Part shown: positions 6,171 to 63,670 of the stretch, one piece after another
Layout: each line of letters begins with the position of its first letter
How positions within the stretch are numbered: the stretch's first letter is position 1
Source: Eledone cirrhosa
Taxonomy: Eukaryota
Length of the DNA stretch: 64,000 bases
NCBI GenBank assembly: GCA_964016885.1
Contig: CAXHJY010001759.1
Coordinates: forward strand, 1 to 64,000
Reading direction: 5' to 3'
Made by a program: the position numbers and the translations under genes
The notes under the pieces: model-generated
The model's database searches: none
Told to the model about the DNA's origin: nothing
The model's input: only the letters and a program-made list of their open reading frames with translations

Positions 6171-6213
6171 ACGTTGCTGACGATAGCTAATAAGCTTGAA
6201 ACTAGTACAGCGT
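6171..6213 (+). ncRNA. Minimal type I hammerhead ribozyme motif, apparently intact
   Basis: ACGTTG-CTGACGA-T-AGCT-aata-AGCT-T-GAAA-CTAG-TA-CAGCGT. Stem I is 6 bp (one G.U), stem II is 4 bp with U.U at its base, stem III is palindromic (ACTAGT), and the triplet is GUA (predicted cut after 6207). Confidence 0.8.
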
Positions 6214-6845
6214 TCCTTTGTCAGGGTTGAACAAACGAGCAACGATGGTTGCTAGACACTGTACGGCTTAATTCAGGATGTTTGTTTACAAACACACCGA
6301 GCATTATAATAAATGTTCGGTGAATCCCTACGTACATATATATATATATATGTGTGCATGTATGTATATATATATACATACTACTGTACATCTGTATACA
6401 TATATGTATGTACGTATACATACTTATATATATATATATATATAAGTCTAAAGTCTGTCTTCAGCCAGAATACTCATTTGGCCGGTACTTATCCTGGTTT
6501 CATGGCGTGAAGCGACTGAGAGTACAAAACACCCCTTGGAGAGGATGCCAGTCCATCACAGGGTTAAACTCCCAGCTATTGCTGGTACTCATTTTCAGCT
6601 GAGTATACTGGAGCAACATGAAATGAAGTGTTTTGCTCAAGAACACAACACGTAACTCAGAAATCGAACCCACGACATTAAGATCACCACAGAGATGATA
6701 TAATAGTATATTAAATATCAAATGATACATATTATATGTAAATATAGTAAAGTAAAAAATATATAATATTTATTTATACATAGTATATATTATAGTTGGG
6801 GAGGGTCATGTTATAATATTACCAGACAACATGAGGAAACATAAT

Positions 6846-6894
6846 AGTATCACTGATGATGTCACAGGTGTGTGACGAAAGAGCTCAGAAAACT
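6846..6894 (+). ncRNA. Hammerhead motif (family J), stem I decayed
   Basis: CTGATGA-T-GTCACA-ggtg-TGTGAC-GAAA-GAGC-TC-AGAAAACT. The core and stem II are intact, but stem I pairs only partly. It is preceded by a family J terminus (ttggggagggtcatgtt, ~6796). Confidence 0.6.
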
Positions 6895-7935
6895 CATCCG
6901 CTTAACAAGTGAGGTAGAGCTTGTCACATCGGACCGAGGAAACAATGTTTCCATTGGTCTTTCCAATTGCTAATACTATCTGTCGGTCACAACTCCAGGC
7001 AGAAAGAGCAACGTGAAATAAAGTGTCTTGCTCAAGGACATAACGCATCACCTGGTTCTGGAATCGACCTCACAACCTCACAATTGTGAATCCAATCCTC
7101 TAACCACTTAGCCATGTGCCTTCACACTCACACACATATATATAGAGTAGTCGACCGACTTTCGTCAAATCGGACTGAGGAAACAATGTTTCCGTTGGTC
7201 TTTCCAATTGCTAATACTATCTATCAGTCACAACTCCAGGTAGAAGGAGCAACGTGAAATAAAGTGTCTTGCTCAAGGATATAATGCATCACCTGGTCCT
7301 GGAATCAAACTCACAACCTCATCATCATTTAACGTCTATCTTCCTCGCTAGCATGGGTTAGATGGGAATTGTCCCACTTGTGACAATATTGAGAGGGGGA
7401 CTGTGTTCACTCGTATAGGACTGTCTGGTAGGTTTTCAACGGCTGGTTGCCCTTCCAAACACCAACCACATTTACTGTGTGAACTGGGAGCCTTTTTACC
7501 ATGTCTCCTACACGACCACTTTACAGCATGGACTGGGTGCTTTTTTGTTGTGTCGCCTACACAACCTCTTTAGTTTGGACTGGATGTTCTGTGGTACCAA
7601 CACAACTTTAACCACTTAGCTACTTGCCTTCACACACACACATATATATATATTCACACACACTAATCATACACACATGTTAGTTTTCTATATCCCGTTC
7701 TAGCACCCTTTGAGGTTTTTTATTTAGTTTTCTTTTCTTATGACATTCATCCTTCCATTATTCCTGGATTAAATGACATAAAAGAAATAAAACCGGAAAA
7801 CATTAAAATGAAATACTTAATATGAATACTAATAATAGGACTAATACTAAATAACTTAAGTATACACTACAAACTCATGAAACAACACAACCAAAAAACC
7901 CATGTCATAATATAATATGACAAATAACAAATAAC

Positions 7936-8125
7936 TGTTTCTACTTTTGGCACAAGGCCAGCAATTACCCCAGTGTATTACTGGTACTTTATTTTATCGA
8001 CCCCCGTTAGGATGAAAGGCAAAGTTAACCTCAGTGGGATTTGAACTCAGGCCGTAAAGGGGCGTAACTCTATGCTACAAAGCATGGGGTCCAACCCTCT
8101 ACCGATACTGCCAATCAACCGCCTT
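7936..8125 (-). mobile_element. tRNA-derived SINE (family S1, Nin-like central domain) with 18-bp TSD
   Basis: Has an A-box-like TGGCAGTATCGG and a B-box GAGTTCAAATCC on the minus strand, and the body gcctttcatcct..ggggtcgataaaataaagtaccag. The direct repeat tgacaaataacaaataac occurs at 7918-7935 and 8126-8143. Confidence 0.85.
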
Positions 8126-8434
8126 TGACAAATAACAAATAACAACAAACATTTACAACCGGAGATTGCCTTAGAAGTACTAAAAATATTAACATTTTTT
8201 AAATGTAGTAGTTGTAGTGGTGGTGGTGGTGGTAGTGGTGGTGTAGTGATAGTAGAGTAGGATTAGTAGTAGTAGTGGTGGTGGTAGTAGTAGTAGTGGT
8301 AGAAGTAGTAGTGGTAGAAGTAGTAGTGGTAGTAGTAATAGTAGTAGTGGATCTTATGTATGTGTGTGAATACTTTTATGCAATAATATCGATGATGATG
8401 ATGATGATGATGATGATGAATGTACTAATTTGTA

Positions 8435-9090
8435 ATAATAATTTTCTACTTTTTGGCACAAGGCCAGCAATTACCCCAATGCATTACTGATACTTTATTT
8501 TATCGACCCCTTCTAATAATAATGATTTCTACTATAGGCACAAGGCCAGTAATTTTGGGGGAGGGGAAAGTCAATTAAATCGACCCAGTGCATTACTGGT
8601 ACTGCCAATCCTAATAATAAATGTTTCTACTTTTGGCACAAGGCCAGCAATTTCCCAGTAGATTACAGGTACTTTATTTTATCGACCCCGTAAGGATGAA
8701 AGGCAAAGTTAACCTCGGTGGGAGTTGAACTCAAGCCGTAACGGGCCGTAACTCTATGCTGCAAAGCATGGTGTCCTACCCTCTACCGATACTGCCAACC
8801 CACAATAATAATTGTTTCTACTTTAGGCACAAGGCCAGCAATTACCCAGTACATTACTGGTACTTTATTTTATCGACTCCGTAAGGATGAAAGGCAAAGT
8901 TAACCTCAGTGGGATTTGAACTCAGAACGTAAAGGGATGTAACTCTATAACGGCTTCTGATTAAGGCACAAGGCCAACAATTGGATAAAAGGGAAAGATG
9001 ACCATATCTACCACAGTGCATTACTGGTACTTTATTTTATCAGGATTTTAACTCAGAACGAAAAGGGACCTAACTCTATACCGCAAAGCA
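8435..9090 (-). mobile_element. Tandem cluster of S1 SINE copies/fragments
   Basis: About five head-to-tail copies, each beginning (aat)n..tttctact..ggcacaaggcca. Confidence 0.8.
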
Positions 9091-63043: not shown

Positions 63044-63105
63044 TTTCACCCTTAACGGGATCTTCAGAAGATCCCGTTAAGAGTGAAAGCAGCAATTCTT
63101 TGCTT
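63044..63105. ncRNA. Family C hammerhead cores, head-to-head and overlapping at C3
   Basis: Minus 63044-63067 reads CTGAAGA-T-CCC-gttaa-GGG-T-GAAA. Plus 63065-63105 reads CAGAAGA-TCCCGTTAAGAGT-GAAA-GCA...TGC-TT. Confidence 0.6.
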
Positions 63106-63207
63106 AACTTTAATCTGTTATTTTAATAAATATATATATATATATAAAATAAAATGAGTAAGTAAAATATGTAAAATTTGGCTTCGTTTATTATAAATTA
63201 TAAATAT

Positions 63208-63262
63208 ACTGCTATATATATTTCTGTGACAGCTATTATTGGCTGTGACCTCTTCAGGCAGT
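63208..63262 (-). ncRNA. Type I hammerhead motif (family D), left arm
   Basis: Reverse complement of 63334-63388. Confidence 0.68.
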
Positions 63263-63333
63263 CCGAATTGGTGTGGAAAAGACAGGTACACACTTCAACA
63301 ACATGTGTATCTGTCTTTTGCACACCAATTCGG

Positions 63334-63388
63334 ACTGCCTGAAGAGGTCACAGCCAATAATAGCTGTCACAGAAATATATATAGCAGT
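63334..63388 (+). ncRNA. Type I hammerhead motif (family D)
   Basis: ACTGC-CTGAAGA-GGTCACAGC-caataata-GCTGTCACA-GAAA-TATATA-TA-GCAGT. Stem I is perfect, stem II has two mismatches and stem III is palindromic. Confidence 0.7.
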
Positions 63389-63629
63389 AAATTTATAATT
63401 TATAATAAACGAAGCCAAATTTTACATATTTGACTTACTTATTCTATTTTACATTACTCCGGAATAAACAAACCAACCTGTGTACTTCGTCGAGCGTTCC
63501 AATCTGCATACTGAGGTGTCGGTAAACAACCAACATATACTAAAAATATATGTATATATATATAAGTAGTAACACAACAGTTAGTTGACCATACCGAGAA
63601 CAATTGTTTCACCTTAAGCGGGTCCTCAT

Positions 63630-63670
63630 CCAAGCTGAGGATCCGCTCAAGGTGAAACAATTGTTCTCGG
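63630..63670 (+). ncRNA. Minimal hammerhead motif (family E)
   Basis: CCAAG-CTGAGGA-T-CC-gctcaa-GG-T-GAAA-CAATTG-TT-CTCGG. Stem I pairs at 4 of 5 positions, there is U.U at the base of stem II, and stem III is palindromic (AACAATTGTT). Confidence 0.65.

Follow-up and report, generated by a model that had tools for sequence, protein, structure and literature searches.

The 64-kb window analysed here (the whole stretch of 64,000 nucleotides) holds many short islands in which hammerhead ribozyme motifs lie beside (TA)n runs. It raises the question of whether these motifs are genuine, which elements they come from, and how the islands came to be so short and so often inverted. A type I hammerhead descriptor (CUGANGA, helix II, GAAA, helix III, UH, helix I) found nine complete motifs, with C3 at 6177+, 18726+, 18711-, 19490+, 19369-, 47966+, 63339+, 63257-, and 43411-. 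The comparison with dinucleotide-shuffled controls proposed in an earlier, sequence-only reading of this DNA gave a clear answer, as local shuffles of the window (60 and 50) averaged 0.02 complete motifs and never held more than one. In 600 kb of grid samples from the genome, 51 hammerheads were present against 0.1 expected from shuffles; all motif counts refer to the canonical core only.

Beside the nine complete motifs, the window contained about a dozen imperfect motifs and 13 half-motifs, the latter being arms of family G that carried the 3' half of a hammerhead or the tail only. Two motifs had a full core and failed the descriptor: 41447- (C3 at 41486), in which helix III is one pair with a 2-nt loop, and 34548+ (C3 at 34554), with mismatches in helices I and III. 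About ten were core-mutated or had lost a helix (27870-, 27745-, 29448+, 63064+, 63635+, 35628+, 17661-, 6853+, 36955+, and 47891-). The sequence-only figure of about 20 complete or core-mutated motifs was thus fair. A special density was not confirmed, since at the genome-wide mean rate the window should hold 5.4 motifs (p = 0.10).

The stem variants that had been read as covariation between copies (GTCACA/TGTGAC vs. GTTGCA/TGCAAC, ATTC/GAAT vs. CTTC/GAAG) exist, but the first pair separates families D and D2 and does not distinguish copies. Compensatory changes were clear elsewhere: in 19 sub-family variants of the family C type, both sides had changed in 7 of 9 helix II pairs, and the covariation score was reached in 0 of 500 shuffles, in a test biased toward structure because the rows were chosen by a pairing descriptor. 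At minimum free energy, 18711-, 18726+, 35628+, and 63635+ do not give a monomeric hammerhead fold; the full-length family G motif folds as a hammerhead with a U3-A8 core. The core of family I was mutated in every copy seen (family-wide core CAGAAGA). Rfam, which had been suggested as a check, reported no hammerhead at the gathering threshold in the window scan, and at E ≤ 1 there was none among the matches listed (150 of 327). Judged by sequence, the type I motifs are real and far above chance, and self-cleavage is predicted at H17.

The window has no long coding frame and no match to Penelope-like element (PLE) proteins; fragments 5834-6035 and 18342-18533 did not match these proteins either. 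Extension of the families in the 5' direction, through longer copies elsewhere in the genome, led to RT and/or GIY-YIG frames for 9 of the 14 window families, so the islands are best read as truncated ends of autonomous elements. Six of the traced families (B, F, G, I, J, and M) are PLEs of the Hydra clade; the other three are D, D2, and L. A full-length tandem family G element was located at G000:C1:11,226,500-11,232,300, where two hammerheads 3,118 nt apart enclose one frame of 718 aa with RLRWR, SDKTG, YRDD, CxCx5C, GIY-YIG, and CxxC..CxH motifs. The hammerhead-linked, AT-targeting, PLE-derived character proposed for these elements therefore stood, and their description as mainly non-autonomous did not. 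Most islands are very probably the 3' ends, truncated on the 5' side and often arranged head to head, of autonomous PLEs, mainly of the Hydra clade, inserted in (TA)n and accompanied by two non-coding tandem repeats.

The Hydra-clade families have a single frame with RT followed by a C-terminal GIY-YIG domain, complete in G (718 aa), 627 aa long in I, and partial in B, F, J, and M. The change of DKG to DKT occurs as SDKTG or SDKTN in G, I, and M (the B, F, and J copies do not cover the region), and the RW motif reads RLRWR (G) or RLRWT (M), its third letter not being the K of RWK. The CxCx5C linker is present in G, I, and B, with the last C replaced in the F and J copies; CxxC..CxH, placed about the conserved E and N as is typical of the clade, which lacks CCHH, occurs in G, I, B, and F, and the GIY-YIG core of G has one cysteine only. 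These families also have the hammerhead in the pLTR and insert into (TA)n, and the G unit measures 3,118 nt against a clade described as generally shorter than 3 kb. The Hydra assignment was made by eye against published Hydra proteins; a Neptune-type protein encoded in this genome was 23% identical.

Links between hammerhead arms and frames were counted by family. The exact full-core G pattern had 5,345 matches genome-wide and the reversed pattern none; a Hydra endonuclease lay upstream on the same strand in 7 of 25 full-core loci (6 places). Family F was linked to a Hydra-type frame in 11 of 20 loci, and family B in 2 of 20 loci on the same strand plus one inverted, 84-96% alike, with a link that crosses nested insertions. 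Arms joined to a frame with no intervening TA run numbered 2 of 31 in I, 2 of 6 in J, 6 of 23 in D (traced through grid samples), 2 of 7 in D2, and 1 of 5 in L. The M tail continues into a Hydra frame; the M and L links each come from one locus. Two candidate parents were rejected: a search for a G parent in which a CUGANGA core is followed by a flawless helix II hairpin matched a single chimera, the helix II of the true parent being long and imperfect and its core U3-A8; and the tie of a family F variant to a Poseidon-type RT (locus L077) was a junction with an inverted piece, the F parent being Hydra-type.

Most islands of the window belong to the Hydra-clade families, with G the most frequent. 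A G head-to-head pair at 10997..11188 has a long arm on the minus strand (+46..+179 from C3) and a short arm on the plus strand (+49..+103), and of the hammerhead it retains just the 3' half. Two pairs occupy 17071..17417, and the arms in 17071-17202 have no common sequence; the arms of the pair at 18963..19159 end at +47/+48, and those at 28574..28700 do not overlap. Single long G arms lie at 43132..43257 (+), 60505..60641 (-), and, diverged, 61612..61733 (+). Family B forms a head-to-head pair at 18562..18781 with complete hammerheads (C3 18711- and 18726+; long arm minus, short arm plus), together with older arms with mutated cores (27745-, 27870-) at 27686..27959 and an older pair with core CUCAUGA at 29319..29507. 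The F pair at 63146..63551 has a short minus arm and a long plus arm, both with complete hammerheads (C3 63257- and 63339+). Family I pairs were found at 18827..18950, with non-overlapping arms, and at 62952..63133, where hammerhead 63064+ has the CAGAAGA core. Family J contributes a 3' half with the tail hairpin at 19603..19718 (-) and a pair with hammerhead 63635+ at 63565..63699. Family M is present as a pair of tail pieces at 37809..37972 and as a pair at 47830..48063 with the complete hammerhead 47966+ and inverted fragments (47891-, 47838-). The 47966+ motif had been overlooked previously.

Families D, D2, and L end in a GIY-YIG domain resembling the Neptune/Nematis type, whose linker is CX2-5CxxC and whose core holds two cysteines; no bulged hairpin was found behind the short ends of D, D2, and L, which differs from that type. 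Family D occurs as a head-to-head pair at 41253..41793 with hammerhead 41486-, and a D-type hammerhead remnant with a broken helix I lies at 6848..6893 (+). In longer D copies, the GIY-YIG frame with its CX2-5CxxC linker terminates about 195 nt upstream; the linker is CIDKKCITC, the core has two cysteines, and the PF01541 match is weak (E 2.7e-4, under the cut-off). The arrangement of Neptune/Nematis-type elements, in which this linker precedes a GIY-YIG that is C-terminal and has CCHH, was found in D, and L offered a frameshifted remnant only. The D2 end at 36921..37203 (+, C3 36955) has a weak helix I, and in longer copies the GIY-YIG frame terminates about 265 nt upstream. The L end at 35616..35747 (+, C3 35628) carries a minimal hammerhead, and one longer copy lies 553 nt downstream of the frameshifted GIY-YIG remnant.

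Two families, A and E, are non-coding and tandem, and behave as retrozyme-like elements. The A island (6056..6432, +) is a 5'-truncated copy of a 427-nt unit of the non-LTR retrozyme type; its complete hammerhead spans 6171-6213, with a palindromic helix III and a predicted cut after 6207. A type I hammerhead recurs in each 427-nt period, which falls within the retrozyme size range of 150-450 bp. The E copy at 43310..43438 (-) has the short end and a complete hammerhead (C3 43411); the unit of about 1.3 kb, partially tandem at one locus, exceeds the retrozyme size, its longest ATG frame is 68 aa, and the parent unit has Hydra-type hairpins. Both tandem repeats are likely to use the same enzymes as the PLEs. 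For A the link is less certain: it has no bulged hairpin, and of its four inverted pairs only two were classifiable, one as short+long and one as long+long.

No parent frame was found for families C, H, and K, with extension tried at 14 further C loci; matches obtained by reading through the long end of C were to an unrelated satellite. The C head-to-head pair at 19185..19594 has two complete hammerheads (C3 19369- and 19490+), a Hydra-type tail hairpin, and the two ends. Arms of H lie at 17436..17660, beside hammerhead 17661- with G12 mutated. The K hammerhead at 34549..34638 (+, C3 34554) has a long helix II insert and mismatches in helices I and III, and no second copy was present among the loci compared.

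The 3' ends of every family fall at two fixed positions, one short and one long. All 66 head-to-head pairs joined arms of the same family: 50 were short+long, one long+long, one short+short, and 14 unclassified, so that 50 of the 52 classifiable pairs were short+long. In G, the arms differed by 1.5 of 50 nt within a pair and by 4.6 between pairs. In 18 of the 66 pairs, the arms had at most 12 nt in common, which argues for two priming events. A bulged hairpin follows each end in the Hydra-type families; among long F copies a strict test recovered it in 5 of 12, among E copies in 1 of 9 (doubtful), and in H in 0 of 1. The E, F, and H reference copies escaped this test, although the E hairpin is visible by eye. 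The statement that each island is bounded by (AT)n held for the 3' side, where 134 of 171 defined ends met such a run against a 7% background. The 5' side often lacked one, and 47966 has no TA run within 2.5 kb upstream. Among the grid-sample hammerheads, 47 of 51 had (TA)5 within 250 nt downstream, against a background of 23%.

The 5' stops of the arms lie at the ribozyme in two families. All 28 G arms of the grid sample that reach +55 end at +34..+55 from C3, and 20 of 23 B arms end at -7..+8; elsewhere, such stops were seen in 6 of 16 I arms, 1 of 12 D arms, and 0 of 5 A arms, with stop windows set after the data were seen. Few arms had a start that lay no more than 5 nt from the predicted cleavage product (1 of 36 in G, 1 of 28 in B, 1 of 25 in I). 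The stubs of both families have a uniform length of 190-200 bp, and those of these two commonest families are likely to be short because copying halts at the ribozyme.

We infer a mechanism in which the GIY-YIG domain would nick both strands of a TA run and two reverse transcriptions would begin on one uncleaved element RNA, at the short and the long fixed sites, each a few bases before a bulged hairpin. The two cDNAs would be joined head to head; a long cDNA that ended at or before the short site would give non-overlapping arms, and one that ran past it a palindrome. In G and B, the folded ribozyme would probably be where both cDNAs stop (G at the helix II loop, B at helix I or the core), which would account for the uniform 190-200 bp "mini-elements". 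It is possible, and we propose it tentatively, that in Hydra-type elements the uncleaved hammerhead fold acts as a terminator of RT: a dimeric enzyme would make two starts on one RNA, slightly ahead of twin bulged hairpins, both cDNAs would halt at the ribozyme, and the products would be joined head to head, leaving about 19 of 20 G insertions as inert 190-bp palindromes. This route, limiting itself, would have made one of the largest known genomic ribozyme loads, on which hairpin-bearing non-coding units such as E would hitch.

Other explanations concern the motifs, the islands, and the stops. Matches of the UUGANAA type do occur in satellites (loci L143 and L161; these artefacts were left out of all counts), but the excess over shuffles in the window and in the grid samples, the compensatory changes, and the fixed position of the motif behind PLE frames leave chance motifs in AT-rich repetitive DNA a negligible probability. 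The islands could also move in their own right as complete non-autonomous units (retrozymes or MITE-like ribozyme elements), perhaps via circular RNAs. The A tandem unit, for which no fewer than 1,117 candidates share about 98% identity, the non-coding E unit, and the very even length of the G and B stubs agree with this, and C, H, and K, linked to no frame, could be non-autonomous. As the general case it is refuted, and for the islands it is very improbable: most families reach coding frames, half of the ribozyme is missing from G stubs, and junction bases vary between copies. G stubs also mirror the sub-family variants of full-length copies, as predicted by repeated truncation and not by amplification of one stub.

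With truncated autonomous PLEs as the preferred source, the inverted pairs might still arise by snap-back of one cDNA on the ribozyme hairpin, followed by self-primed copying. The position of G and B junctions at ribozyme helices, and the fact that arms of a pair are mostly of the same sub-family, would suit such an origin; it is unlikely, however, given the 18 pairs with no common sequence, and it does not explain why, in 50 of 52 pairs, the second arm ends at a short site that is fixed. A less remote but still doubtful idea has the template RNA's 5' end lying at the G and B hot-spots, through an internal transcription start or a nuclease cut, in place of a structural stall. Were the RNA to have a fixed 5' end, the resulting pattern could not be told from that of a stall. 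In the grid sample the barrier in G is near-absolute, and only about 4% of arms pass it genome-wide (the 5,345 exact full-core matches against an estimated 140,000 or so arms). Yet the stops are scattered over about 15 nt, and they match helix boundaries in the predicted fold, not the hammerhead cut site.

A PLE clade with hammerheads and a (TA)n preference is already in print (PMC8557442). The consulted text describes RT then GIY-YIG in one frame, with DKT, RW(K/R), CxCx5C, CxxC, and CxH. In that account the pLTR contains a hammerhead, insertion is into (TA)n, copies may be 5'-truncated and inverted, and the tail lies on one side. The frame layout, motifs, and insertion habits seen here are the same, and Hydra-1_Obim is the published Octopus family of that clade (PMC8557442); the 15-nt helix II motif of its hammerhead was absent from the window and from all collected loci. 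The present set differs in comprising at least six distinct families with 33-53% amino acid identity (measured among B, F, G, I, and M, which had been called sequence-unrelated) and tails of about 70-100 nt against the published 30-40. G differs further in its U3-A8 core. The end rule, the hairpins, and the ribozyme stops are absent from the consulted Hydra text (PMC8557442). The end rule, the sign of two primings, and the hairpins go beyond the published accounts found, as far as their consulted text extends.

Among other PLEs, the Poseidon element of Anolis carolinensis uses two internal start sites in vitro that define its tail, nicks and extends both strands at AT-rich targets, and takes uncleaved RNA as template, according to the consulted text (PMC11167929). 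It belongs to another clade and its frame starts inside the hammerhead, whereas the G frame starts 274 nt past C3; that text mentions neither head-to-head pairing nor stops at the ribozyme (PMC11167929). Unlike Naiad, which has an N-terminal GIY-YIG and no canonical hammerhead, the elements here have a C-terminal endonuclease and hammerheads. Palindromic helices III (CTAG, TATGTA, TGCGCA, and TATATA), implying dimeric folding, and an unpaired first base of helix II recall the minimal PLE hammerheads, as described in the consulted part of PMC4209133; B, G, and I differ in a longer stand-alone helix III and could fold as monomers. Metazoan non-LTR retrozymes are described, in the text consulted, as dispersed monomers and dimers with PLE-like insertion (PMC7229834; 10.64898/2026.07.22.740005), and family A resembles them in these traits and in its non-coding 427-nt tandem unit and type I hammerhead. 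By those descriptions, the retrozyme label fits one, at most two, of the 14 families, E being three times the described size. A literature search covering neither Repbase, Dfam, nor subscription journals found no paper on octopod PLE hammerheads beyond PMC8557442, and none on truncation at the ribozyme or twin priming in PLEs.

Extrapolation from the 600 kb of grid samples gives roughly 160,000-360,000 hammerheads genome-wide, very roughly a quarter of a million, and the 3-Gb genome is estimated to hold several hundred thousand PLE stubs, chiefly of the little-known Hydra clade. The element class itself is already known; Rfam misses these stubs, and short-repeat finders would class them as unknown palindromes. 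Cleavage seems dispensable in vitro for the PLE hammerhead. With a 718-aa Hydra element that is intact and whose cis signals are defined, three questions become testable, namely the nature of the one-sided tail, the origin of the inverted insertions, and the purpose of the PLE hammerhead.

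With the strict version of our descriptor we found five hammerhead motifs in the window, and the looser version, which allows an unpaired first base in helix II, gave nine complete type I hammerheads; locally shuffled windows (60 and 50) averaged 0.02 motifs and never had more than one. This shows that the hammerhead observation of the sequence-only reading was real and above its proposed dinucleotide-shuffled control. Eight of the ten motifs it named belonged to the complete set, whereas 41447- and 34548+ had a full core with weak helices, and it had overlooked the complete hammerhead at 47966+. 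In about 10 further motifs the core is mutated or a helix broken; 13 arms (5′-truncated element ends) of family G retained only the 3′ half of the hammerhead or the tail. The Rfam scan suggested in that reading detected none of the window hammerheads with the Rfam models. Its claim of stem covariation was supported in helix II, with two-sided changes in seven of nine pairs among 19 variants of the family C type (a score reached by 0 of 500 shuffles); since the rows were picked with a pairing descriptor, these compensatory changes are supportive of the structure and not independent.

Hammerheads were then counted by their canonical core over a fixed grid of sixty 10-kb stretches in 20 large contigs. 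There were 51 complete canonical motifs, in 24 of the 60 stretches (shuffles, 0.1), and the bootstrap range of 32–72 corresponds to roughly 160,000–360,000 per 3.0-Gb genome. Published loads, in the portions of the literature consulted, are >6,000 in coral and up to 120,000 in axolotl. The window, called dense in the sequence-only reading, is not special in this respect (nine motifs vs. 5.4 expected from the genome average, p = 0.10). The (AT)n share was 13% in the window versus 5% in the grid samples, and 47 of the 51 grid hammerheads had (TA)5 within 250 nt downstream, compared with 23% of random positions. The genome count is an underestimate because canonical descriptors overlook Neptune-type elements with UUGANAA (U3-A8) cores: one autonomous family at loci L063, L068, L074, and L177 and the autonomous families of L075, L081, and L065, one of these elements having GCAA in place of GAAA. 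UUGANAA matches in L161 (G000:C7:30,000,001–30,010,000) and L143:7670–8260 were rejected as false hammerheads from AT-rich satellites. Tandem hammerhead units of ~459 nt (L064:6700 and 7159), ~595 nt (L138:2380 and 2975), and ~467 nt (L195:2703 and 3170), all absent from the window, are candidate retrozyme families.

The window arms were sorted into 14 families (13 by reference sequence, plus K), and each was followed into the genome, where we found 10,596 GIY-YIG candidates; all 150 that were scored exceeded the cut-off. The family G pattern (window half-motif plus possible core) had 5,345 exact genome matches and its reversed control 0; the core usually reads UUGANAA, with U3-A8 in place of the C3-G8 pair. 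At C1:11,226,500–11,232,300, two G hammerheads 3,118 nt apart flank a single 718-aa frame with RLRWR, SDKTG, YRDD, CxCx5C, GIY-YIG, and CxxC..CxH, the marks of the Hydra clade of Penelope-like elements (PLEs) in the excerpts used of Craig et al. (2021; PMC8557442). These also describe Hydra elements with hammerheads, (TA)n targeting, inverted truncated copies, and one-sided tails, including an Octopus bimaculoides family. Of 7,998 database proteins that were scored, 2,216 matched the G protein at E ≤ 1e-20; the top matches were mostly 38–43% identical and unnamed.

A Hydra-type frame was also upstream of family F at 11 of 20 loci, of B at 2 of 20 on the same strand plus one inverted (links that cross nested insertions in a TG/TA-rich UTR), of I in 2 of 31 arms (937 nt), and of J in 2 of 6 (~200 nt); at one locus the M tail continues into a Hydra start. 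In six of 23 D arms and two of seven D2 arms, a GIY-YIG frame whose linker is CX2-5CxxC was within 190–270 nt upstream, and L was behind a frameshifted GIY-YIG remnant in one of five. No parent frame was traced in the genome for C, H, and K. Family A is a tandem unit of 427 nt for which the genome has at least 1,117 near-identical candidates; under the published definition it is a non-LTR retrozyme. Family E is a non-coding unit of ~1.3 kb. The proposal of non-autonomous PLE-derived or retrozyme-like elements therefore holds for A and E, but G, F, B, I, J, M, D, D2, and L lead to coding frames. Retrozymes are PLE derivatives (Cervera 2020, PMC7229834; Li 2026, 10.64898/2026.07.22.740005) and minimal palindromic hammerheads have low activity (Cervera 2014, PMC4209133), according to the excerpts of these works. 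The hammerhead islands are real, abundant, and mostly explained, as new families within a known class.

Some loci combine families. The TA/TG runs of the B 3′ UTR are invaded by other families at L182 and L192, so elements nest within each other's UTRs. L178 (G000:C7:80,181,827) is a chimera of a B core with an inverted G helix II and tail end, which suggests template switching between families. On the minus strand of L264 (~5200–5430), part of a Neptune-type RT thumb is fused directly to the E-type hammerhead heading a 1.3-kb unit. In the autonomous Hydra family I, with an estimated 100,000 arms, every copy seen, including window 63064+, has a CAGAAGA core, whose U4-to-A change would be expected to impair cleavage.

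The end rules of these families make the PLE mechanism testable. The 3′ ends fall at two fixed positions per family, short and long, ~45–100 nt apart, and (TA)4 adjoins 134 of 171 defined ends (background 7%), in agreement with the (AT)n boundary noted earlier, on the 3′ side. Within 10 nt past the short end, B, C, G, I, J, and M have a hairpin, ACTC-stem-loop-stem-bulge-GAGT (GCTC/GAGC in I); among 2,700 tails that were shuffled, 12 had it. Reference copies of E, F, and H had the hairpin in imperfect form, and it was not found in those of A, D, D2, and L, nor in two Neptune-type tails. By eye, this hairpin can also be made out in the published consensus sequences of Hydra-2_Amil, Hydra-2_Ajap, and Hydra-1_Ajap. 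Where copies run on, a second hairpin lies 6–8 nt past the long end (G, M, E, and one D locus). Non-coding E has both, which suggests that a Hydra enzyme moves it; family A, unlike E, is without both.

The survey of head-to-head pairs took in the window, all 60 grid stretches, and 49 loci retrieved through their GIY-YIG matches. All 66 joined arms of the same family: 50 were short plus long (two of them one local duplication), one long plus long, one short plus short, and 14 unclassed. Arms differed by 1.5 of 50 nt within and 4.6 between pairs in G (13 pairs) and by 3.4 and 6.7 in B (seven pairs); in I (three pairs) the two values were alike. In 18 of 66 pairs the arms share ≤12 nt, and the long arm often stops right at the short site. 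A single cDNA copying itself cannot make these non-overlapping pairs, but two primings on one element RNA could. Twin priming of L1 is a comparable route to inverted insertions. The excerpts of Frangieh (2024; PMC11167929) describe an Anolis PLE that has two internal start sites and acts on both strands, which fits two primings here.

At the other end, all 28 G arms of the grid sample reaching +55 (offsets from C3 of the core) end at +34 to +55, on the helix II loop side; for B the count is 20 of 23 arms, ending at −7 to +8, in helix I and the core. Both stop windows were set after looking at the data. The cluster was weaker in I (6 of 16 arms) and absent in D and A (1 of 12 and 0 of 5). The arms of a G pair are mostly separated by a junction gap of 0–8 nt, so alignment error does not account for the G cluster. 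Extrapolated genome-wide, 28 arms per 600 kb amount to ~140,000 G arms versus the 5,345 exact full-core matches, a lower bound, so only a few per cent pass the stop. For the G and B stops, arrest at the folded ribozyme is the likeliest cause, a tentative preference that could well be wrong; the main rival is that an RNA 5′ end at the stop position sets the truncation. Cleaved RNA was seldom the template, given that few arms have their start where cleavage is predicted to leave the product end (1 of 36 in G, 1 of 28 in B, and 1 of 25 in I). Searches of the openly accessible literature found no paper on a truncation hot-spot at a ribozyme.

The window, the first 64 kb of contig C1786, has a repeat content that seems octopod-like, and simple repeats apart it contains no long coding frame. 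An exon-like stretch at 26901–27090 (the 27080 region), with a GT donor at its end, has a 52-residue reading that we take to resemble the DIX domain of Dishevelled, so the ribozyme islands may be intronic to a host gene. Two related fragments of 200 bp (5834–6035 and 18342–18533) lie in (TA)n; they have degenerate frames on the minus strand and did not match the PLE proteins of this analysis. The tRNA-derived heads of one SINE family, barely above the Rfam tRNA gathering score and often adjoining (TA)n, occur at 16073–16130 (+) and 62666–62723 (−) and also at 18082–18144, 32428–32490, and 47543–47610. Minisatellite arrays of 41 and 32 bp occupy 31619–33287 and 33369–33932, and a 23-bp TA-based array at 39536–43103 contains a family D pair.
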